The position numbers and the translations under genes were made by a program. Below, piece after piece: positions 3,762 through 25,700 of a DNA stretch of 29,064 nucleotides (the first letter of the stretch is position 1; the number at the start of each line of letters is the position of its first letter). Below the pieces are notes generated by a model, which worked only from the letters and a program-made list of their open reading frames with translations, was not told the origin of the DNA and did not search any database. Origin of the DNA: a virus; UHGV virus genome UHGV-0076264; one strand, 5' to 3'.

Positions 3762-4637
3762 TCAGAAGAAAATCCAGTCCCAGACAGCCCGTGCAACCGA
3801 TACCACAGCATCACGCACGGTCCGAATCACCATTTTCAGCGGGGCGGGCAGGAGCAACGAAGACTCCGCCGTATCGAACACCCGCCCCACCGCTTCGCCA
3901 AAGCCGTCACGGGCCTGCGACCTGACCGGCTCCGTACAGAACCTCCCGTGTAACTGCGTCGCCACCGGACTGGTGGCGCGGTCAGGCAGACAGCGCATTA
4001 TGGTTGACACCATCTCTTCAATGCCCCAGCCGGTCAATGCTGACACCATGCAGACCGGATGACGGGGAGTGAATATCGTGGTAATGGCGGCCTGCTTCGC
4101 CTTCAGGTTAGCCTGCTGCTGTGGCGAGGGGGTGCCGGTACGGATATCCCATTCATGGCAGGGTTCGATTTTGTCGGCCTGATTCAGCACAAACAGCACC
4201 TGCTGCTGGTAAGGCTGCATCACACCGCGCCAGAACTGCTCGTCCACCGACAGCGCCCGGTCATCGGCCTTAATGACCCACAGCACCAGGTCCAGTTCCG
4301 GCAGCATACGCCGGTACAGGGCACGGTATTCATGGTCCCGTTGCCCGTTTTCTCCCACACCCGGTAAATCAACAATCATCAGACTGTGACGCCCGCTGCG
4401 TAGCCGGAAGCGCAGCACTTCACGGGTACAGACGTTCACATCACTGACGGGGGAGACCTCACCCCGGAAGAGTTCGTTACAGAGCGAAGACTTACCGGCA
4501 CCACTTTTGCCCATGATACCAATCACCGGCTCGTAGTGGGTGAGATTCTGAATACGTTCAAGAATAAGCTGGCGAAGCGTATCGGGAAGCGACGCCAGCG
4601 GTTGTTCAAGGGCCTGAAAGCCGTATGGTTTAGTCAT
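3762..4637 (-). CDS. GTPase with P-loop (YfjP/YkfA-like, 50S ribosome-binding GTPase family), 291 aa
   Basis: G1 motif GIMGKSGAGKSS, G3 DLPG, NQADK G4 motif; ATG at 4637. Confidence 0.8.
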   Translation of the reverse strand: MTKPYGFQALEQPLASLPDTLRQLILERIQNLTHYEPVIGIMGKSGAGKSSLCNELFRGEVSPVSDVNVCTREVLRFRLRSGRHSLMIVDLPGVGENGQRDHEYRALYRRMLPELDLVLWVIKADDRALSVDEQFWRGVMQPYQQQVLFVLNQADKIEPCHEWDIRTGTPSPQQQANLKAKQAAITTIFTPRHPVCMVSALTGWGIEEMVSTIMRCLPDRATSPVATQLHGRFCTEPVRSQARDGFGEAVGRVFDTAESSLLLPAPLKMVIRTVRDAVVSVARAVWDWIFF

Positions 4638-4650
4638 AAAGGGATCTCTG

Positions 4651-4695
4651 CATGAAAAAACAAAAATCCCCGCACTCCGGTAAGGGAGGCGGGGG
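4651..4695 (-). terminator. Intrinsic terminator-like hairpin plus U-tract 14 nt upstream of the GTPase start codon (possible leader attenuator or 3-prime end of an unannotated small RNA)
   Basis: Stem CCCCGC/GCGGGG plus CTCC/GGAG with one bulge (4668-4694), followed on the minus strand by ATTTTTGTTTTTT. Confidence 0.5.
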
Positions 4696-5704
4696 ATTCA
4701 CGGAGATAATATCTTTCTAAAATAATTTTTAATGCAATTATCCCCTGGGAGGGGGCTTCGGACCACGCGTGGGGTGTAGGTACCCTGAGAAGTTATCTTA
4801 GTCAAAATCTAACGATCATATCTTGTAATTTAAGTATTTTTTTGTGGATGTGTAACTATTTGTAAGTAAATATCATTTTTAATGAATATCGTTTTTTGTC
4901 ATATGTAAGCAATCCTGATTCCATTTCTAGTGGGGCTGTCTTGGTCTGCGACGTGATGAACAAATGGAACATTGATTAAATCAATGATGAAGGCTATCCG
5001 TGGCGGTGCTTTATCGTACTGAATACTGAAATTTTACAAGAAGTACATTACTTGGCACCGTGGTTTGAAGCAAAAAGGCATTAAGTTTTTGCAGGAACAT
5101 CTCGAAGAGCCAGAACGATTCTGGCTCCCGATAAAGATTTATTTAGCTCAGTCTTATCTGACTGAATAATAACAAACAGCCCCTTATGATGGTACGCCTC
5201 GTCTATTACCTAAAAATTAAAATGCTCATCCGCCGTCAGAGCCTGTTCATCAGCCTAAATCAGTCACAGCACTAGAACGAGGCGGGGAAGTAATTCATGG
5301 TACAGGGCTGCATACTCAACGTCGCGAGCTCTACTTTCCCTCCATGCTAGGTAGATCATCACCGCTTTTTACTTTCCTATTATGCGACCATTGGGGGCGG
5401 TAAAGCAGATTTACGTTCATGTATCAGCACACTCTGACACATGATGCAGTACATTCATTTGGCATTAATATCTTGCCACGCAGATGCTTTTAGTTTTTTA
5501 TTTGCTACATCGAAGATGCTAGCTCTGACGCAGGTACAATTTGTTTGCCAGCGGTAACGGCAGTAAGTCAGCCTCTTTGCTACTGCTTGTACGACAGGCA
5601 GCCAGCGAATAACATATTTATCAATGCGATGCAGCGATTTTAAGCGTATTATTTGCTACGCGTAGTAATCTACTGGATCTATTGGAAAGATATGGAGCCT
5701 GACG

Positions 5705-8356
5705 ATGTCTGTGAGCTGGACTAAAGCTGATTTTTTTAAGTGCGCTTTGCAGGTAAATCCTGCGGGTTACAGTAAGTATCGCGGGAAAGAATCACTTAGC
5801 GAGGATACCTACAATCAGAAGCTGTTGGAGTCCTGCCTCGAAGCTGGTATACAGATTGTCGGTGTTGCGGACCATGGTGCTGTTAATGCTGTAGACAGGA
5901 TTCGTCAGCTCTTTAAGGAACATGGTATTGTCGTTTTTCCTGGATTTGAGATCTGCTCGAGCGAAAAAATTCATTTCGTTTGTTTGTTTGATGAAAACCG
6001 GACAGTACAAGAATTGGAACGCTGCTTGAGCAATCTGGGGTATGAAAATCCCGATGATTGCATTTCCCCTTCAAGGCTCAGCGCCATACAGATTATTGAA
6101 AAAGTAGAATGTTTGGGGGGATTTATTTTCGCTGCACATAGCACGAATGATAATGGCGTGCTGAAATGCCGTATGAATCATATATGGAAAGAACGTGGGT
6201 TGTTGGCGGCGCAGATTCCAGGAACTGTCGATGACTTGAAAGGAGTTGAGGATGATTTTTATCGCAAAGCTATCCTGAACAAACTTCCTGACTATCGTCG
6301 CGAGCGTCCTATTGCCATTATCAACGCGGCAGATGTTGCCCAACCAGAGGAAATTAAAACTCCGGGCGCATCCTGCCTGATAAAAATGACTCGGCCATGC
6401 TTCAGTTCATTTAAACAGGCATTTTTAGATCCAGAGTCACGAGTGCGTCTCAACGCAGATAAGCCACATTGCTATGCTTCGGCAATTGAAAATATTCATT
6501 TTACTGGTGGATATCTGGACGAAACCAATATCACCTTTTCTGACCACCTCAATGCTGTTATAGGTGGGCGTGGGACAGGTAAATCGACTTTGCTGGAGGC
6601 CATTCGCTTTGCTCTGGGTAAACAGCCTTTTGGTGATTCAGCACAAAAGCAACATAGTGCAATTATTAAAACTAACTTAGGGAACGGTACGCTGGTTCAA
6701 CTACAGGTTCGCTCTGCTATGATGCAAGGCCGTACCTTTACCATAAGTCGCAAATTTGGCGGGAAATCCATTGTAACAGACAGTGAAGGGAAAGTTTCAT
6801 CTTATACCCCAGATGATTTACTTCCTAGGTTGGAATTGTATGGGCAGAACGAAATTTATGAAATGACCCGCGATATTCATAGTCGTAATCGTTTGGTTGA
6901 GAGATTCTTGGAAGGAGATCATAGCAAGTACGATGTGATAATCGATAAGGTCTTGTCACGCTTGGAAGAGAGTAGCATTACTATCCTAAATGCTCTTGAG
7001 CAAAAGGCAGAGATAGAACTTGAAGTAGCACGATTGCCGAAACTACTGGAGCAGGCAGAGCAATTTAAACAGCTTGGCCTGGATGAAAAACTCAAAATTG
7101 TTCCTTTACTGGAAAAAGAGAAGCAGCTTAGCTTACGTCATCAGGAAGAATTATCTAGGGTGAAGGATGTTCTTCAGAAACTAAAAGACAGCCTGCCTGA
7201 CCTCGCTTATCTTGGCGATGGCGTGATAAATGTCATGCCTCACCACTCTCTTTTTCTCCAGCAACGTGATGTACTCCAACGAGCACAGGAGCAATTGTCA
7301 ACACTAGTTCAACATATTGATGAGACCCTTCAGCGGTCATTTGCGGAACTTGCTCCTTTACAACTTGAGTTATCAGATCTAATCGGTGCAGAAGAAGCTC
7401 AGCTTGAAAAAGCCTTTAAAGATATTCCAGCCAGCCAGGGAAAAAGTGGGCGACAGATTGGCGCAGAGTATCAAATATTGTTACGTCAAATTGCTTCTAT
7501 TCGCCCTAAAGCAACGGAGCTGGAGAACTGGCAAAAGCAACTTGATGAGCTGTACCAGCAGCGTAAAAGACACCTTCTGGAACTTATTCAGGCTCGTTCT
7601 CAACGTTCTGCTGCATTGGCAAAATCCGTCAAGCGCTTAAATAGAAGACTGGATGAAAAAGTGCGACTCAATTTGCAGCCAGAAGGTAACCGTCAACCCC
7701 TGTTGCATTTTCTGGAGCAATGTAATCTGGAAGGGGTAGGCTCACGACGCCTCGCTTGGGTATTGGAGCATGATTTTTCACCGGAAAATCTGGTTGAGAG
7801 TATCCGCCTTGGTGAACAAGCATTACATAATGCCGGGTGGGGAATTACACCAACAGTCATCCAGGCATTATTGCGGTTGAGCGAAAAGCAGCTTCTAGAA
7901 CTGGAAGCATTATCATTACCGGATACGATGCAAATTGAGCTGAATGTCATGCATGACGGTGGTGGCGTACTTTGGCGCCCTATCGATGAGCTATCGACTG
8001 GGCAGCAGTGTACTGCTGTACTGCATTTATTGTTGTTAGATAATAAGGACCCACTGATCCTCGATCAACCTGAGGATAACCTTGATAATGCATTTATTGC
8101 AGAGCGTATAGTGACGGAACTGCGTAGGGCGAAGCTGTCCCGGCAGTTTTTATTTGCCACACATAACGCTAACATACCAGTTTTCGGTGATGCTGAATGG
8201 ATTGGTGTGTTGAGTGTGGAAGAGGGGAAAGGGCGTATCCTTCCTGAACAGCAAGGGGCGATTGATCTACCTGAAATCCAGTGTCTGGCGGCGAATATCC
8301 TCGAAGGTGGTCAAAGTGCCTTTAATCAGCGCCGGGAAAAATATGGATTCAAATAA
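5705..8356 (+). CDS. PHP-like phosphoesterase domain fused to Rad50/SbcC-like ABC ATPase with coiled-coil insert, 883 aa; candidate single-protein anti-phage nuclease (Ppl-like)
   Basis: N-terminal PHP-like motifs (VGVADHG, FPGFE, FAAHS); Walker A GGRGTGKST; long heptad-rich middle; ABC signature LSTGQQ; Walker B LILDQPEDNLD; H-loop FATHNAN; GGAG-like RBS before ATG 5705. Confidence 0.85.
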   Translation: MSVSWTKADFFKCALQVNPAGYSKYRGKESLSEDTYNQKLLESCLEAGIQIVGVADHGAVNAVDRIRQLFKEHGIVVFPGFEICSSEKIHFVCLFDENRTVQELERCLSNLGYENPDDCISPSRLSAIQIIEKVECLGGFIFAAHSTNDNGVLKCRMNHIWKERGLLAAQIPGTVDDLKGVEDDFYRKAILNKLPDYRRERPIAIINAADVAQPEEIKTPGASCLIKMTRPCFSSFKQAFLDPESRVRLNADKPHCYASAIENIHFTGGYLDETNITFSDHLNAVIGGRGTGKSTLLEAIRFALGKQPFGDSAQKQHSAIIKTNLGNGTLVQLQVRSAMMQGRTFTISRKFGGKSIVTDSEGKVSSYTPDDLLPRLELYGQNEIYEMTRDIHSRNRLVERFLEGDHSKYDVIIDKVLSRLEESSITILNALEQKAEIELEVARLPKLLEQAEQFKQLGLDEKLKIVPLLEKEKQLSLRHQEELSRVKDVLQKLKDSLPDLAYLGDGVINVMPHHSLFLQQRDVLQRAQEQLSTLVQHIDETLQRSFAELAPLQLELSDLIGAEEAQLEKAFKDIPASQGKSGRQIGAEYQILLRQIASIRPKATELENWQKQLDELYQQRKRHLLELIQARSQRSAALAKSVKRLNRRLDEKVRLNLQPEGNRQPLLHFLEQCNLEGVGSRRLAWVLEHDFSPENLVESIRLGEQALHNAGWGITPTVIQALLRLSEKQLLELEALSLPDTMQIELNVMHDGGGVLWRPIDELSTGQQCTAVLHLLLLDNKDPLILDQPEDNLDNAFIAERIVTELRRAKLSRQFLFATHNANIPVFGDAEWIGVLSVEEGKGRILPEQQGAIDLPEIQCLAANILEGGQSAFNQRREKYGFK

Positions 8357-8359
8357 CAA

Positions 8360-9240
8360 AGAATTAGGCTGTCTCCCTTAATTACGTAACCGTTGATAAA
8401 AGAGTCGGATGCAGCCCAGTTTCACCATCGCCAGATAATTTCTTGCCGTTTTGTCGTAACGTGTAGCGATGCGGCGGTATTCTTTCAGGTGACCAAAGCA
8501 CCGCTCAACGACGTTGCTATTGCGATACGCATCGCGATCAAGCCGTGCTCGTCCAACCGATGCCATTTTTTCATTTGATTTTCGGGGGATGACTGCCTTT
8601 AAGCCTTTATTTTTCAGCTCGTTGCGCAATGTGTGTCCGGAGTACGCTTTGTCGGCCAGCACAACATGACCACGGCGTTTTATGCAACCGTTCTGACGCT
8701 GAACGCCAATGCCGTCCAGAAGTCGTTGCGCAAACTGGCTTTCATGAGACTGCCCGGGGCTTAGCACGATATTTAACGGGAGGCCGCTTCCGTCTGTTGC
8801 CAGATGGATTTTGGTGCCAAAACCGCCTCGAGAGCGACCCAGCCCATTATCTTCGTCGATATCGGGATGTTTTTTGAGCTCCGGCGGCGCATTTTAGCGC
8901 CCGGATATTACTGCCATCCAGCGCTGTGGCAGACCAGTCAACAAAGCCGTTCGCATCAAGTCGTGAAAGCAATCTGTTAAAAATGATGTTAATCACGCCT
9001 GACTTTGACTACCTGTTAAAGCGGTTATTAACGGTTTTCCATGGCCCATATCGTTCGGGTAAATCGCGCCATGGTGCGCCGGAACACAACACCCAGAACA
9101 TGCCGTTGATGATTTTACAATGCTCTGCCCATGGGCGCCCGGCCTGTCGTGTGGCAGGTTCAGGGGGCAACAAGGGCTTGATGATGGCCCATGCTTCATC
9201 GGGGAGGTCGTAGCGAGTCATGGTTCAATATGTTGTAGAA
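8360..9240 (-). mobile_element. IS5-family insertion sequence (IS427/IS1031-like group), ends approximate
   Basis: Transposase in two frames: N-terminal part 9009..9221 with PWRDLPERYG motif and C-terminal DDE part 8378..8767, consistent with a frameshifted IS5-family transposase; inverted-repeat ends not resolved. Confidence 0.6.
8378..9221 (-). CDS. IS5-family DDE transposase, split over two frames (programmed frameshift or disruption)
   Basis: ORFs 9009..9221 and 8378..8767 on the same strand in different frames with about 240 nt between them. Confidence 0.55.
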
Positions 9241-9597
9241 ACAGACCGTTACTATAGCTCAAACTATTACGGGACACAGCCTAGGAGTCAATCATGCTTA
9301 AAAACGAATTATTGGATATCATTGCCAACGGGAGAGCTCTGTAGTGGAGAACACCAACGTATATTGCTTTCTACTATCGTGATTTTTTCCTAATATTCAC
9401 ATTTCGGTGGCTCTGATTTGTTATGAATTAACAACCAGTTATGTTCGCGAATCATTGATTTTCACCGGTAACACTCTTTCTGCCCGATGCTGCTTCGCAG
9501 GAAGTGCCTCACACGTCAATCAATTAGTGTGTGGCGTTATTTCAGCCCTAGTCGTATTTAAGCTACTATTACTTAAAATTACGATAGTCATGGTGTA

Positions 9598-10264: not shown

Positions 10265-10542
10265 AATATATACCTGTATTTGGTCCTGCGGTTTATAGCA
10301 GACCGTATAGGGATGCCATACAGGCAGGGCTATTCCTAGTTACTGTTGTAGGTATATATTGGTGTCAGATCTTACTACGCACATACTGATCTGATTACTA
10401 CCCTTACTGGTTAATATAGGTAGTAAGGGGATATAACACTATTATATAATATATAATACCTATCCAACATCTAAATTTGAGACGAAGGTAGCCCCAGCCT
10501 GTGATGGCTGTTAAAAAGTTACTCTGCAATTAGCTTCTGGAA

Positions 10543-11163
10543 TTAACCGATGATTCCGTTATTCCAGTGCCGCTTCACAGTCGATAAACTGATACTCAAT
10601 TTCTTTGCGATCTCAGCCTGAGTAAATCCACCTTTCTTTAGTATTGTGATATCACGTCGGTATTTGCTTCCCTCCTTTCGTCCTAATTTTTTCTTAATAT
10701 GTCGATATCGGCTTTTAGTTGATTTAAGATTGTGAATGTCAATCGTATCCTGACGAGCAATCAAAAAAGACAAGCAACTTTCAGCAGAAGGCTCTATCCT
10801 TGAAGCTGGATGGTAGCTGTAGATAAAAATCTCTTTTTGAAGGCAAAAAAATAAAATATTCTGTAAGTCCTCCACAGTTCCGCCAAGACAGCTTAGATCT
10901 GGAATTACAAGCGTGTCCTGCCGGTTCATTTCATGATGAATCAATTGTCTGAGTAAACGTTGCTCTGAAACAACCTCTTTAATATCTATCTGCTCGATCA
11001 CAACATGTTCAGGTAGAATATTAAATTTTTGGCATATCTCAGTAAGTGAGTGATGATCTGTAATGCTTTCTTGCTGTTTGCTTCTGCATATGGTGTAAAA
11101 AAATGAACGCATTTGATGCACTCCGGTGTCATAAATTATTTTTTGATACCTGAATAATGTCAT
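10543..11163 (-). CDS. DNA-binding protein with C-terminal Hin/resolvase-type HTH, no catalytic serine motif, 206 aa
   Basis: C-terminal GGFTQAEIAKKLSISLSTVKRHW; N-terminus lacks the resolvase Ser motif; AT-rich coding sequence. Confidence 0.55.
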   Translation of the reverse strand: MTLFRYQKIIYDTGVHQMRSFFYTICRSKQQESITDHHSLTEICQKFNILPEHVVIEQIDIKEVVSEQRLLRQLIHHEMNRQDTLVIPDLSCLGGTVEDLQNILFFCLQKEIFIYSYHPASRIEPSAESCLSFLIARQDTIDIHNLKSTKSRYRHIKKKLGRKEGSKYRRDITILKKGGFTQAEIAKKLSISLSTVKRHWNNGIIG

Positions 11164-11268
11164 TTTGTATAAAAAACAATCAAAAATGGAGAGGTGATTG
11201 CCAGTGATACTTTGACTGGTAAAGTATTATTTTACCTCTCATAATTGTTTGTCCTTCTTTGTTACCTC

Positions 11269-12123
11269 TTAGGTTCTGCTCTCCTGCGAGTATGGGTTTA
11301 TGATGATGTCATCCGGTGCATTAACACGGTAGGAAGCATCTGTTTTGCGGAGCACTGGCAGCATAACTGTCATATCATTGACATGGTAAATATCAATCCA
11401 ACAAACAACCGGATAAGGCATAACAATCCTCTTTCTTCTAAGAACTTCATTTATCCCGAATATAATTAATTGGGATGTTGGCAAGAGTAGAGCCTGCCCG
11501 ACATCAAAGTAATAATCCTCAAAGGTTGTTCTATGAATAAGAATAATATTTGAATATCCTGAGACACTTTGATTCTTTACATTAAAATGTCGTTGATTGT
11601 AAATGTAAATGGCTTTTTCCATATCGTAATTTTCCCTCAGCGAGGATAGTCTTTCACGTATAACCGTTTTTTCATCTTTTCCCATGAATTTATCATTAGC
11701 GTTCAGTTGAAAGTAATCTGCAATGGGGATTTTTAACGGACTAATGATGTTCGTTTTCCAGATTAACGAGCAGTACTCTTCCAGAGTTACTTCTGTTTTA
11801 CCTCGACTTAGATTAATGCTTTCTCTTATAGAGAACTTTAACAGGTCATTTTTTATTTCATTTATTGACCAGTTATGACGATTGCATTTTTCTAATATAG
11901 GGGTAACAAAATCCATAACTTCCGCTATTGCGGAAGATTTAGATTGTTGTGTTAGTTCGGCATAAAGATCAATTGCTTCTAATGACGATTGATTTTTGTA
12001 CGTGAATGAGCTTTTTTTTATGGGAGTAGTCTGTACTACCTGTGACTCATTGTTTTTGTCTTGACAAGATTTCTTTCCAGGTAGAATGTTGCTCATCTCA
12101 AAATTAGTAACACAATTAGACAT
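11269..12123 (-). CDS. Hypothetical protein, 284 aa, AT-rich
   Basis: Long ORF with strongly AT-biased composition; position and length resemble yagM of CP4-6 (recalled). Confidence 0.5.
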   Translation of the reverse strand: MSNCVTNFEMSNILPGKKSCQDKNNESQVVQTTPIKKSSFTYKNQSSLEAIDLYAELTQQSKSSAIAEVMDFVTPILEKCNRHNWSINEIKNDLLKFSIRESINLSRGKTEVTLEEYCSLIWKTNIISPLKIPIADYFQLNANDKFMGKDEKTVIRERLSSLRENYDMEKAIYIYNQRHFNVKNQSVSGYSNIILIHRTTFEDYYFDVGQALLLPTSQLIIFGINEVLRRKRIVMPYPVVCWIDIYHVNDMTVMLPVLRKTDASYRVNAPDDIIINPYSQESRT

Positions 12124-12239
12124 TTTTAAGGAAACCTCTCTTATCTCAATATAAAACTATTATCTTAAATTTCTCAGTGTTGCCCCATTTTTCTCGGGGC
12201 AACATCGCTATAAATCAATAAAATTAAATCTGTAATTTA

Positions 12240-12464
12240 TTACAGACTTTCTCGTACAGAAAATGTATCTATAAAATCGAGGACCTCTTTACGTAACCAG
12301 TAATGGCGGCCATTGATTTGTTTTGGGCGAGGTAGCCCCTCAGGCAATTTGTCCTGACAAAGCCATTTACGAATAGTTTGAGATTTGTAGCTAAGGATTT
12401 TAGCTAACTCAGCTGTTGAAACGAGCTGTGATTGAGATGTATCCGGGAGTTTGAATGCGCTCAT
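12240..12464 (-). CDS. AlpA/Xis-family small DNA-binding protein, 74 aa
   Basis: HTH-like segment STAELAKILSYKSQTIRKW and conserved GRHYW motif typical of AlpA-like excisionase/regulator proteins. Confidence 0.6.
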   Translation of the reverse strand: MSAFKLPDTSQSQLVSTAELAKILSYKSQTIRKWLCQDKLPEGLPRPKQINGRHYWLRKEVLDFIDTFSVRESL

Positions 12465-12901
12465 TTTGCCACCTCAGTGATTGAGATATTGGCAAAGAAA
12501 GCTTTAAGCATTATTGAATTAGTCGGGGGAGTAATAAAGGTAGAGGGAAATGTTTCGGGCTCGGGGTCAGGGTCATTACCATCACCTGAATCTGATGATA
12601 AGGCACTTTTAGCTGATTTAGCCGTACTGTGATGCGATCTGGATGCCTGATTTTTACATGACATCAGACGCGCGAGAAAGTTAGTAGCATTTTGCATTGT
12701 TTGTTTAAAATGTAAAATTTTCAGTTTGGCGCACGCGACAGACTTGCGAAGAGCTGAATATGTTCCTTTGAGATACTCGACAACCTCTTCCATGGACGCA
12801 GAATCGTTAAAGGATTGAGTTGTTTTACTTGAATTAAAACACCAGCGAGCTCTGATAGTTGCCAGAGTGGGTTCTATGGATACAGTTGCTGGGGTTGCCA
12901 T
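12461..12901 (-). CDS. Hypothetical protein, 146 aa
   Basis: ORF whose stop overlaps the start of the AlpA-like gene by 4 nt; no recognisable motif. Confidence 0.45.
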   Translation of the reverse strand: MATPATVSIEPTLATIRARWCFNSSKTTQSFNDSASMEEVVEYLKGTYSALRKSVACAKLKILHFKQTMQNATNFLARLMSCKNQASRSHHSTAKSAKSALSSDSGDGNDPDPEPETFPSTFITPPTNSIMLKAFFANISITEVAK

Positions 12902-23219: not shown

Positions 23220-23518
23220 CGGGCAAAGAGGCAATTATTCATTACCTGGGGACTCATAAGAAATTCTGTGCGCAGGACGTTGCCGCGGTAACAGGCGCAA
23301 CGGTAACCAGCATAAATCAGGCTGCGGCTAAAATGGCACGGGCAGGTCTTCTGGCTATCGAAGGTAAGGTCTGGCGAACGGTGTATTACCGGTTTGCTAC
23401 CAGAGAAGAACGGGAAGGAAAGGTGAGCACGAATCTGATTTTTAAGGAGTGTCGCCAGAGTGCCGCGATGAAACGGGTATTGAGGGTATATAAAAGAACA
23501 TCAATGGGTACACAATGA
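23216..23518 (+). CDS. ren: Ren protein, 100 aa
   Basis: MTGKEAIIHYLGTHKKFCAQDVAA... matches lambda Ren; overlaps the P stop. Confidence 0.8.
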   Translation: MTGKEAIIHYLGTHKKFCAQDVAAVTGATVTSINQAAAKMARAGLLAIEGKVWRTVYYRFATREEREGKVSTNLIFKECRQSAAMKRVLRVYKRTSMGTQ

Positions 23519-23585
23519 TGAAACAGGTGAGTTGAGTTCAAACTGTAGTACAATTCTCTCCAGTTTGAACAGGAAAGAATATTCT

Positions 23586-23918
23586 ATGAACCCTTATATT
23601 TATCTTGGTGGTGCAATACTTGCAGAGGTCATTGGTACAACCTTAATGAAGTTTTCAGAAGGTTTTACACGGTTATGGCCATCTGTTGGTACAATTATTT
23701 GTTATTGTGCATCATTCTGGTTATTAGCTCAGACGCTGGCTTATATTCCTACAGGGATTGCTTATGCTATCTGGTCAGGAGTCGGTATTGTCCTGATTAG
23801 CTTACTGTCATGGGGACTTTTCGGCCAACGGCTGGACCTGCCAGCCATTATAGGCATGATGTTGATTTGTGCCGGTGTGTTGGTTATTAATTTATTGTCA
23901 CGAAGCACACCACATTAA
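23586..23918 (+). CDS. emrE: Small multidrug resistance efflux protein EmrE, 110 aa
   Basis: MNPYIYLGGAILAEVIGTTLMKFSEGFTRLW... is essentially E. coli EmrE; the ORF-track start at 23532 is a spurious TTG extension. Confidence 0.9.
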   Translation: MNPYIYLGGAILAEVIGTTLMKFSEGFTRLWPSVGTIICYCASFWLLAQTLAYIPTGIAYAIWSGVGIVLISLLSWGLFGQRLDLPAIIGMMLICAGVLVINLLSRSTPH

Positions 23919-23948
23919 AAATAATTTGTTTCTAAACGACTAAAATAT

Positions 23949-23989
23949 GGAGGCTCTTATATTTATATGAGCCTCGTTTTATGCTTTTT
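23949..23989 (+). terminator. Intrinsic terminator after emrE
   Basis: Stem GAGGCTC/GAGCCTC (23950-23956 / 23969-23975) followed by GTTTTATGCTTTTTG. Confidence 0.6.
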
Positions 23990-24173
23990 GTTAATGTCTT
24001 TATTTTTTTATGTATTCTTTTGTGCTTTCAAGATTATGGCGTAAGAAAATTGCAATACGATTATTGTTGTATATTCAAGATAATGTGACCTTAATTGTCT
24101 TTTTAAATAAAAATTAAACAAAATTATATCCCACCACTAAGGTTTATAAAAGCATACGTTAGCAGGTGTCACC

Positions 24174-25700
24174 ATGAAAAAAGCCATAGCATATATGCGA
24201 TTTTCATCACCAGGTCAGATGTCTGGCGACTCATTAAACCGACAGAGAAGACTTATTGCTGAATGGTTAAAGGTAAATAGTGATTATTATCTTGATACCA
24301 TAACATATGAAGATTTAGGATTAAGTGCATTCAAAGGAAAGCATGCACAATCAGGAGCTTTTTCGGAATTTTTAGATGCTATAGAGCATGGTTATATATT
24401 GCCAGGAACTACATTGTTAGTTGAAAGTCTGGACAGACTTTCAAGAGAAAAAGTCGGTGAAGCGATTGAACGTCTGAAATTGATTTTGAATCACGGTATT
24501 GATGTTATAACTCTTTGCGACAATACAGTCTATAATATTGACTCTTTGAATGAGCCATATTCATTAATAAAAGCCATACTTATAGCACAAAGGGCAAATG
24601 AAGAAAGCGAGATAAAGTCAAGTCGGGTTAAATTATCATGGAAGAAAAAACGGCAGGATGCACTGGAATCAGGTACGATTATGACGGCGTCTTGTCCGAG
24701 ATGGCTCTCCTTAGATGACAAAAGAACGGCTTTTGTTCCAGACCCCGACAGGGTGAAAACTATTGAGCTAATTTTTAAACTCAGGATGGAAAGGCGCTCA
24801 TTGAATGCAATAGCCAAGTATTTAAATGATCATGCTGTAAAGAATTTCTCAGGAAAAGAAAGTGCATGGGGACCTTCTGTAATTGAAAAATTATTAGCGA
24901 ATAAAGCTCTGATAGGTATATGCGTACCTTCATATCGTGCAAGAGGTAAAGGAATAAGTGAAATCGCTGGCTATTATCCCAGAGTCATATCAGATGATTT
25001 GTTTTACGCTGTACAGGAAATTCGGTTGGCACCTTTTGGTATTAGCAATAGTAGCAAAAATCCTATGTTGATAAATCTACTTCGAACAGTTATGAAGTGC
25101 GAGGCTTGTGGTAATACCATGATTGTTCATGCGGTATCTAGAAGTTTGCATGGCTATTATGTTTGTCCGATGAGAAGACTGCATCGATGTGACAGGCCAT
25201 CAATAAAGAGAGATTTGGTTGATTATAATATCATTAATGAGTTGCTTTTTAATTGTAGTAAAATCCAACCAGTTGAAAACAAGAAAGATGCTAATGAAAC
25301 TTTAGAGTTGAAAATTATTGAGCTCCAGATGAAAATTAATAATTTAATTGCTGCATTATCTGTTGCGCCTGAAGTTACCGCTATAGCAGAAAAAATCAGA
25401 GTATTAGATAAGGAATTACGAAGGGCTTCTGTATCATTAAAAACTTTGAAGAGTAAAGCGGTGAGTTCACTTGGTGATTTTCATGCTATTGACTTAACCA
25501 GTAAAAATGGGCGAGAGCTATGTCGTACACTTGCCTATAAAACATTCGAAAAAATCATAATCAATACAGATAATAAAACCTGTGATATCTATTTTATGAA
25601 TGGCATTGTTTTTAAACACTATCCTTTAATGAAAACAATATCCGCCCAGCAGGCGATAAGTACTCTCAAATATATGGTTGATGGTGAGGTTTATTTTTGA
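24174..25700 (+). CDS. Large serine recombinase (YbcK-like), 508 aa
   Basis: N-terminal resolvase catalytic motif AIAYMRFSSPGQ, Cys-rich zinc-ribbon-like region and C-terminal coiled coil. Confidence 0.8.
   Translation: MKKAIAYMRFSSPGQMSGDSLNRQRRLIAEWLKVNSDYYLDTITYEDLGLSAFKGKHAQSGAFSEFLDAIEHGYILPGTTLLVESLDRLSREKVGEAIERLKLILNHGIDVITLCDNTVYNIDSLNEPYSLIKAILIAQRANEESEIKSSRVKLSWKKKRQDALESGTIMTASCPRWLSLDDKRTAFVPDPDRVKTIELIFKLRMERRSLNAIAKYLNDHAVKNFSGKESAWGPSVIEKLLANKALIGICVPSYRARGKGISEIAGYYPRVISDDLFYAVQEIRLAPFGISNSSKNPMLINLLRTVMKCEACGNTMIVHAVSRSLHGYYVCPMRRLHRCDRPSIKRDLVDYNIINELLFNCSKIQPVENKKDANETLELKIIELQMKINNLIAALSVAPEVTAIAEKIRVLDKELRRASVSLKTLKSKAVSSLGDFHAIDLTSKNGRELCRTLAYKTFEKIIINTDNKTCDIYFMNGIVFKHYPLMKTISAQQAISTLKYMVDGEVYF

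Follow-up and report, generated by a model that had tools for sequence, protein, structure and literature searches.

An orphaned trlF gene in an Escherichia coli island: the remaining half of a trlF-trlG cassette and a relative of the anti-phage protein Ppl

The virus genome UHGV-0076264, analysed here as a window of 29,064 nucleotides (nt), contains one large gene for an 883-amino-acid (aa) protein at positions 5705-8356 of the forward strand, and the question it raises is whether this gene is a complete defense system or a fragment of one. A sequence-only reading of the DNA had proposed a phosphoesterase domain fused to a Rad50-like ATPase, with no visible partner gene, and had tentatively matched it to Ppl, which Gao and colleagues reportedly presented in 2020 as a single-gene anti-phage protein. 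The open reading frame (ORF) and all of the quoted motifs are present exactly as that reading claimed. We find, with near certainty as to identity, family and orphan status, that the gene is trlF, which belongs, like Ppl, to the TrlF superfamily, and that it has lost the partner gene trlG.

Curated family models separate TrlF from Ppl. The window protein scored 542.3 bits on the NCBIfam model NF045780 (TrlF_fam_ATP; cut-off 350), with residues 8-881 aligned to model positions 3-944, but reached only 174 bits against a cut-off of 1000 on the Ppl_antiphage equivalog model NF042955. Our Ppl comparison sequences were taken from annotated plasmids, and the one used as a positive control (WP_015059139.1) scored 1330 bits on NF042955 and 477 bits on the TrlF model. 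Because a genuine Ppl also passes the TrlF model, that model describes a superfamily, with Ppl as a narrow subfamily nested in it. BLASTP supports homology between the window protein and Ppl across the full length, with 25% identity in residues 34-390 and 32% in residues 696-879 (E values of 1e-25 and 5e-19). Hidden Markov model searches, which had been suggested as a check, gave a mixed answer: in Pfam, the ATPase families AAA_23, SMC_N and AAA_21 are above threshold, PHP (PF02811) is marginal at the sequence level with 15.8 bits and falls below its gathering score of 26.4, and the best PADLOC match is indeed Ppl (PDLC02208, E = 2e-40) but is limited to residues 73-571. An exhaustive representative search returned 7,557 clusters at 50% identity (E ≤ 1e-3); its best 150 matches are TrlF-type proteins only, and ten representatives, down to 28% identity, all class as TrlF and none as Ppl. 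The closest described protein, TrlF of Photorhabdus, shares ~63% identity, equal length, the same variant PHP residues and the same ABC motifs. Membership in the Ppl family is thus largely refuted; we rejected it on the NF042955 score, the identity of ~25%, the substitution of three canonical PHP histidines and the conserved partner found in this clade.

That partner, and what is left of it in the window, can be read from the arrangement of the locus:

5616-5704, forward: block of ~95 bp that every enterobacterial allele keeps in front of trlF (blastn and sequence comparison)
5705-8356, forward: trlF, uninterrupted, ATG start, encoding a TrlF-family protein of 883 aa (ORF, NF045780 and the Prokaryotic Genome Annotation Pipeline, PGAP)
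8357-8367, forward: opening 11 nt of the 20-nt spacer that once joined trlF to trlG, with the TAG target-site copy as their last letters, 8365-8367 (sequence, and alignment with alleles free of the insertion)
8368-9281, reverse: insertion sequence (IS) of the IS5 family, 914 bp, with terminal inverted repeats of ~18 nt and a TAG duplication at 8365-8367 and 9282-9284
9285-9349, forward: remaining spacer with ribosome-binding site (RBS) GAGTCAATC, then the 5' remnant of trlG from the ATG at 9294, MLKNELLDIIANG

We surveyed 26 species-level loci, 23 of them outside the enterobacterial clade, and found a full-length trlG 9-60 nt downstream of trlF in 21 of those 23 species. In Methylomonas, Aeromonas and Nitrosomonas, this next gene encodes a protein of 406-410 aa with SLFN_AlbA_2 and HATPase_c_4 domains (PF04326 and PF13749). 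TrlG is better conserved than TrlF in these loci (62-93% versus 57-65% identity), the pair is present even in family members only 31% identical, and the two genes are presumably co-transcribed. In three IS-free E. coli contexts, homology runs past the trlF stop, across 20 nt of spacer in which AGGAG is the RBS, and into ATG CTT AAA AGC GAG... In the window, the same start lies beyond the IS5-family element, whose transposase is annotated as a pseudogene (programmed frameshift; internal stop) and whose insertion is common to all 17 near-identical E. coli copies. The remnant is 56 nt long (9294-9349), with homology stopping at 9349; tblastn with four TrlG proteins matched it at 9294-9338, and alignment with intact and truncated alleles places a 1-nt deletion that leads to a stop at 9342-9344. 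The idea of a single-gene system therefore gives way: with an IS in the spacer and a trlG stub behind it, the system is a broken one. These data establish the ancestral linkage of trlF and trlG in the window, and the trlG now present is non-functional.

The lost partner resembles a known type of RNase effector. TrlG matches the pAgo Schlafen module in PADLOC and carries an E13-x4-E18-x-K20 motif together with an AMAN box. A recent preprint describes a fusion of Schlafen and a GHKL ATPase, the "Schlatpase", as the ATP-gated tRNase effector of SLFN-pAgo, with the signature E(x)4(D/E)xK and a SAFAN box (bioRxiv 10.64898/2026.05.29.728809). Both Pfam domains of that module recur in TrlG, as does the E(x)4(D/E)xK signature, but TrlG is free-standing, with an ABC ATPase as its partner in place of a fused Argonaute; the likeness concerns the lost partner, a putative tRNase, and not the gene in the window. 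Schlafen-type nuclease activity, if TrlG has it, would explain the growth arrest that depends on this gene in Photorhabdus.

That arrest gave the locus its name. Trl stands for temperature restriction locus, an operon of trlR, trlF and trlG in Photorhabdus laumondii that is switched on when the temperature moves to 36 °C and leads to growth arrest, and whose deletion lifts the restriction (Hapeshi et al. 2020, PMC7554251). All stable tolerant suppressors fell in trlG as missense, stop or IS mutations, no trlF mutant turned up among more than 20 temperature-tolerant suppressors, and the heat-induced phenotype maps to that gene rather than to trlF (PMC7554251). The window shares with this operon the downstream partner, as a remnant, and differs in having no trlR and only 56 nt of trlG. 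Because the phenotype needs trlG, no temperature-dependent growth arrest is expected there. A mechanism has since been published for Ppl as well, so the family can no longer be called mechanistically unexplored, as the sequence-only reading had it. Ppl is reported to be a 3'-5' exonuclease on single-stranded DNA (ssDNA) that is inhibited by nucleoside triphosphates (NTPs) bound to its PHP and NTPase domains and is triggered by 3'-OH overhangs together with NTP depletion (Xu et al. 2026 Mol Cell 86:180). Ppl also protects against T7.

How far that mechanism might carry over depends on the parts of the protein, which are arranged as follows:

5705-6457, forward: PHP-fold domain with a histidine-poor site, residues 1 to ~250
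6476-6919, forward: N-terminal half of the ABC ATPase head, residues ~258-405 (Pfam AAA_23/SMC_N, invariant columns, PDB matches to SMC/Rad50)
6563-6589, forward: Walker A, GGRGTGKST
residues 380-386, forward: Q-loop, GQNEIYE
6920-7651, forward: antiparallel coiled-coil insert, residues 406-649, apex at ~496-513 (full-length AlphaFold2 model)
7652-8353, forward: C-terminal half of the ABC ATPase head (Pfam AAA_21/SMC_N, invariance, 32% identity to Ppl over residues 696-879)
7991-8008, forward: signature motif, LSTGQQ
8054-8086, forward: Walker B and D-loop, LILDQPEDNLD
8156-8173, forward: H-loop, ATHNAN

The ATPase is of the Rad50/SMC class, as had been proposed, with a complete motif set that is invariant across all loci examined and a Rad50/SbcC-type layout in which the coiled coil stands between Walker A and the signature motif. 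Its coiled coil is shorter than the ~400 residues first estimated; the AlphaFold2 model gives ~245, in helices at 406-441, 444-495, 514-572 and 582-649, with predicted local distance difference test (pLDDT) values mostly of 80-94. PDB searches with TrlF, with its N-terminal profile and with Ppl found no solved close relative, and the matches of the ATPase part are to SMC and Rad50 heads. The picture of an Mre11/Rad50 complex in one polypeptide is nonetheless an analogy only. There is no zinc hook, as residues 406-649 contain no CxxC and the apex at 496-513 reads LAYLGDGVINVMPHHSLF; the curated Rad50 models score 30.7, 24.3 and 18.2 bits against cut-offs of 700-1000; and no gene for a calcineurin-type (Mre11/SbcD) nuclease adjoins trlF among the ORFs and annotation of the window. 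Rad50/SbcC with Mre11/SbcD, Lamassu LmuB, Gabija GajA and PrrC/RloC share with TrlF a coiled coil that splits an ABC head and a nuclease-type module in the system. Unlike them, the window protein lacks the hook, has a far shorter coiled coil and carries its nuclease-like domain as a fusion with a PHP rather than a calcineurin fold, and sequence scores to these systems are marginal.

The N-terminal domain adopts a PHP fold with an unusual site. Because the full-length model is uncertain in the ATPase heads and the PHP domain (pLDDT 69.5), the fold search was limited to a separate N-terminal model, which found the distorted TIM barrel of PHP proteins and so agrees with the phosphoesterase-like domain proposed for the first ~250 residues. 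The suspicion that the first PHP motif is missing also proved right: QVN (Q16, N18) stands where HxH is expected and A212 replaces the histidine of DxH, making the site divergent. Aligned motif by motif, Ppl reads FDFHNHT, SDH, PGVE, VHIL, LAH and GSDAH, and the window clade reads CALQVNP, ADH, PGFE, IHFV, AAH and NAADVA; H57, E82, H90, H145 and D210 are retained as canonical ligands, and both motif I histidines and the last-motif histidine are lost. Q16, N18, C13, C93 and N207 are identical in every locus examined, and position 212 varies freely. The ratio of nonsynonymous to synonymous substitution rates (dN/dS) is ~0.06 in the PHP domain, as low as in the ATPase head, which indicates a domain under constraint rather than in decay; the coiled coil has the highest ratio of the four regions (0.10-0.19). 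Judged from these residues, the metal site must differ from that of Ppl, where the full canonical ligand set (FHNHT...GSDAH) is kept. The Q16/N18/A212 arrangement suggests reduced or altered metal chemistry and possibly a sensing rather than degradative role.

Comparing the window clade with nine plasmid loci (L039-L047 in our numbering of loci), we distinguish three site types in the TrlF superfamily. Ppl, L042 and L044 have the canonical HxH...DxH type and every one of them stands alone; L040, L045, L046 and L047 have an HLH...NH...DxK type, and two of these four are paired with a TrlG-like gene; the window clade has QxN without the terminal histidine. With 10 loci, the set is too small for a claim of correlation between site type and partner.

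In the enterobacterial clade 88-92% identical to the window protein, trlG has been lost repeatedly and trlF has not. Only one allele, L003 of E. coli ET896 (NZ_CP100883; trlF-trlG at 9081-12985 of L003), which lies beside BREX-1, has an uninterrupted trlG. The gene is frameshifted in L002, which follows a type III restriction-modification (R-M) system, and truncated at about codon 6 in L013, codon 13 in L004 and L014 (one shared event), codon 19 in the window and codon 26 in L031. There were thus at least four independent truncations in enterobacteria, each of which spared trlF: all seven alleles keep the full 883 codons, with dN/dS between 0.045 and 0.13. Stand-alone TrlF-family genes are also frequent on plasmids of Staphylococcus, Listeria, Klebsiella and Sulfitobacter, and the uninterrupted ones include the QxN type (on an S. 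aureus plasmid). In a plasmid collection, 786 records carried a TrlF- or Ppl-like gene; 574 of these plasmids were conjugative, and Escherichia or Klebsiella was the host of most. In one plasmid locus, L047, the TrlF gene adjoins a DarTG-like pair of DUF4433 and macro-domain genes.

The flank upstream of trlF records a further association. The ~95-bp conserved block begins inside an hsdR-type ORF, of which it keeps the final ~10 codons (...FINAMQRF*, stop at 5641-5643) and contains a perfect 10-bp palindrome, CTACGCGTAG, at 5656-5665 and the RBS GGAG. By blastn it matches the upstream regions of L002, L003 and L004 with E values of 1e-13 to 1e-19; the hsdR remnant alone is not significant at the protein level (E = 1.7), and its identification rests on the conserved nucleotide block. 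In L004, L014 and L031, hsdR ends 56 bp before trlF. Elsewhere, type I R-M operons frequently house the trlF-trlG cassette between their hsdS and hsdR genes (L011, L018, L024, L027, L028, L037 and L043), and a variant, L046, has the pair within a type I R-M operon that an IncC plasmid carries on a Tn7-like element. A position between hsdS and hsdR is also that of prrC.

In 10-11 loci, trlF is preceded by trlR, which encodes a protein of 79 aa (listed are L019, L021, L022, L024, L026, L029, L030, L035, L036 and L037), and every trlR is preceded, 35-39 bp upstream (35-47 bp over the listed loci), by 9-bp direct repeats TAGATAATT, TAGCTAAAT or TATCTAAAT that contain a TAGCTA palindrome. Because these repeats match the operator of RptR, TrlR is apparently an RptR-family repressor. 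A study of RptR had noted, downstream of its homologues and embedded in type I R-M systems, a pair of an "RNA-binding protein" and an "AAA-like ATPase" whose function it left unknown and did not link to TRL or Ppl (Zhang et al. 2025 NAR, PMC12255303). This is the identical gene pair, and the Pseudidiomarina aquimaris and Rheinheimera baltica loci of that study are our L037 and L024. The TrlR-RptR connection is drawn in neither source paper, and a preprint on "embedded defences" makes no mention of the trlF-trlG pair. RptR had also been a candidate for the downstream partner, which we rejected, as it is a 79-aa repressor and equals trlR instead. The window differs from the RptR-regulated loci in having neither repressor, operator nor R-M genes beyond the ~10 hsdR codons: tblastn found no trlR in it or in any enterobacterial allele, and no TAGCTA operator occurs between 4640 and 5710.

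A copy of trlF 100% identical to that of the window in E. coli VE-V10-F identifies the window as a CP4-6-type island at the tRNA-Thr gene thrW, a site unlike that of the Photorhabdus TRL, which lies between polA and dsbA. O157:H7 strain 4276 is another carrier of the island. In the island, trlF sits between a gene for a YkfA-type GTPase and yagK, on the strand opposite to the island backbone genes, so the integrative-island location and divergent orientation proposed for it are borne out. The GC content of the trlF region is ~0.43-0.47, AT-richer than the genes to its left; elsewhere in the window it dips to 0.35-0.38, at ~10500-12500 (yagL/yagM-like island genes) and ~23500-25500. Among 5,426 complete E. 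coli genomes, just 27 have the gene, which PGAP names TrlF in all of them, and it is always within mobile or defense islands or on plasmids. Four unrelated E. coli loci have defense surroundings (the CP4-6 island, a type III R-M system, BREX-1, and type I R-M with McrBC), which supports the defense-island setting. The 17 near-identical copies differ by at most 0.2% and all have both the IS and the partner loss. In E. coli O157:H7 strain 1130 (NZ_CP017434.1, 4348354-4352667), an otherwise identical trlF is split by an IS3-family element, so at least one lineage no longer has an intact copy of the orphan gene. The left end of the island lies outside the window (4309-6017 of our locus L001); there, beside thrW, genes for an HNH endonuclease and, on the opposite strand, a DNA cytosine methyltransferase overlap each other, and frameshifted CbtA/YeeU-type toxin-antitoxin genes follow. 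The island thus has further defense or addiction cargo, partly decayed.

On balance, we favor the view that the window gene is an orphaned trlF, the surviving half of a trlF-trlG cassette, encoding a Ppl-like DNA-sensing ATPase/phosphoesterase that may still act alone. Its mechanism, which we draw by analogy and to which we give about an even chance, would run as follows. By homology with Ppl, TrlF would form dimers by way of its ABC heads, which together with the coiled coil would engage DNA ends or the ssDNA made in phage replication. In complete cassettes, this engagement would license TrlG, as an ATP-gated Schlafen RNase, to stop growth and so abort the infection, and the arrest of Photorhabdus at 36 °C would reflect heat-induced overexpression or auto-activation of TrlG. 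Only the TrlF step would be left in the window, where the orphan probably still binds DNA ends, like stand-alone members of the family, and perhaps processes them. The full-length alleles, the low dN/dS, the repeated loss of trlG with trlF spared and the common stand-alone relatives all support a retained function. A broader proposal, which we hold only tentatively and think less likely to be right than wrong, is that trlF-trlG is a two-component abortive-infection system in which TrlF senses DNA ends or NTP levels, TrlG is the RNase effector, and RptR/TrlR represses both, with type I R-M operons as a frequent carrier; temperature restriction in Photorhabdus would then be a form of auto-immunity, the histidine-poor PHP domain (with C13 and C93) would have given up nuclease work for the sensing of a ligand or of DNA ends, and the E. 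coli orphan would show a selectable stand-alone role.

Several observations weigh against this view. Most of the substitution behind the dN/dS values of 0.045-0.13 predates the loss of trlG, and the period after it is not separable; the only pair with a shared truncation, L004 and L014, differs at a synonymous rate (dS) of 0.018, too little for a test. A simple scan directly upstream of trlF gave no convincing sigma-70-like promoter, and expression in the window context is predicted only. The full-length model has low confidence in the ATPase heads. A role of TrlF or the TRL operon in phage defense is a prediction, and Ppl, the source of the analogy, shares ~25% identity with TrlF and differs from it in keeping a canonical PHP site, its mechanism being taken here from secondary accounts. 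E82 corresponds to the metal-bridging central glutamate of canonical PHP enzymes. It is replaced by lysine in L026 and L036 (Photorhabdus akhurstii and P. luminescens), where trlG and trlR are uninterrupted; this hints that PHP catalysis is dispensable at least in those two species. Finally, no suppressor of the Photorhabdus arrest fell in trlF, a gene twice the size of trlG (PMC7554251). It follows that TrlF is not needed for the heat-triggered toxicity of TrlG and may even restrain it, which fits poorly with a simple scheme in which TrlF activates TrlG.

The last point leads to a different role, in which TrlF is chiefly a restraint, an antitoxin-like guard of a toxic TrlG in a toxin-antitoxin or abortive-infection module, and the orphan is what remained after the toxic half was purged. 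The absence of trlF mutants among the suppressors is expected if loss of trlF is lethal with trlG present, or equally if TrlF is irrelevant to toxicity, and the asymmetry of loss, together with IS insertions that strike trlG in Photorhabdus too, points the same way. Yet an inhibitor would need far less than a strongly constrained ATPase of 883 aa with every catalytic motif in place, the constraint continues where trlG is absent, and Ppl and similar members are active defense proteins by themselves. We regard the guard role as quite unlikely as the main function, and it overlaps the sensor model rather than excluding it. A functionless leftover is unlikely too, if less so: TrlF would work only through TrlG, and would be inert since the deletion, perhaps untranscribed, and not yet decayed. 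The loss of trlG and trlR, the lack of a promoter-like site directly upstream and the Photorhabdus phenotypes that all map to trlG agree with this, as do the 17 copies, which share IS and partner loss at ≤0.2% difference and so have had little time to decay, and the IS3 element already inside trlF of one O157:H7 strain. It is at odds with the orphan or pseudo-partner state of at least five enterobacterial lineages (dS 0.1-0.9), in which every trlF has 883 codons and dN/dS is ~0.05-0.13, and with the stand-alone genes, QxN type included, that are common and uninterrupted.

That the gene is after all a true single-gene Ppl system, its PHP exonuclease and ATPase acting alone as in E. coli Ppl, we consider very improbable. 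Both proteins have a PHP domain and an ABC ATPase with a helical insert in the same order, nearly equal lengths (883 aa in the window, 891 aa in Ppl), homology at both ends and a place on mobile elements; PADLOC ranks Ppl best, Ppl itself passes the TrlF model, and trlF does stand alone in the window. Against these stand the 174 bits where the control gave 1330, identities of 25-32%, a PADLOC match confined to residues 73-571 and the QxN site without a final histidine where Ppl keeps HxH and DxH. Ppl, moreover, has no conserved or co-directional neighbor gene, whereas the window clade is paired with trlG and the window retains its stub. We give hardly any credence to a housekeeping enzyme of DNA repair, an analogue of SbcCD/Mre11-Rad50, which the ABC/SMC-class head, coiled coil and nuclease-type domain might evoke and which is echoed in the source name "DNA repair protein" and the gene ontology term for double-strand break repair given by PGAP. 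A gene confined to 27 of 5,426 genomes, always in mobile or defense islands or on plasmids, without a zinc hook and with ≤31 bits on Rad50 models that require 700-1000, does not fit that role.

The orphaned trlF of the window is a gene already named and catalogued, and our results correct its label: calls of Ppl for this clade, automated ones included, are wrong at the curated threshold. Because the catalytic center differs from that of Ppl, the published Ppl mechanism is not simply transferable to it. What looked like a single-gene system is a broken two-gene cassette, and cloning it with its native flanks would assay half a system; a complete E. coli version of trlF-trlG exists in strain ET896. 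Four literatures, on Ppl defense, on the Photorhabdus TRL, on the RptR-regulated pair in type I R-M systems and on Schlafen-GHKL RNase effectors, are thereby joined into a single model open to test. In enterobacteria, where trlG has gone several times and trlF has stayed each time, nature has in effect put to the test which half of the cassette costs more.

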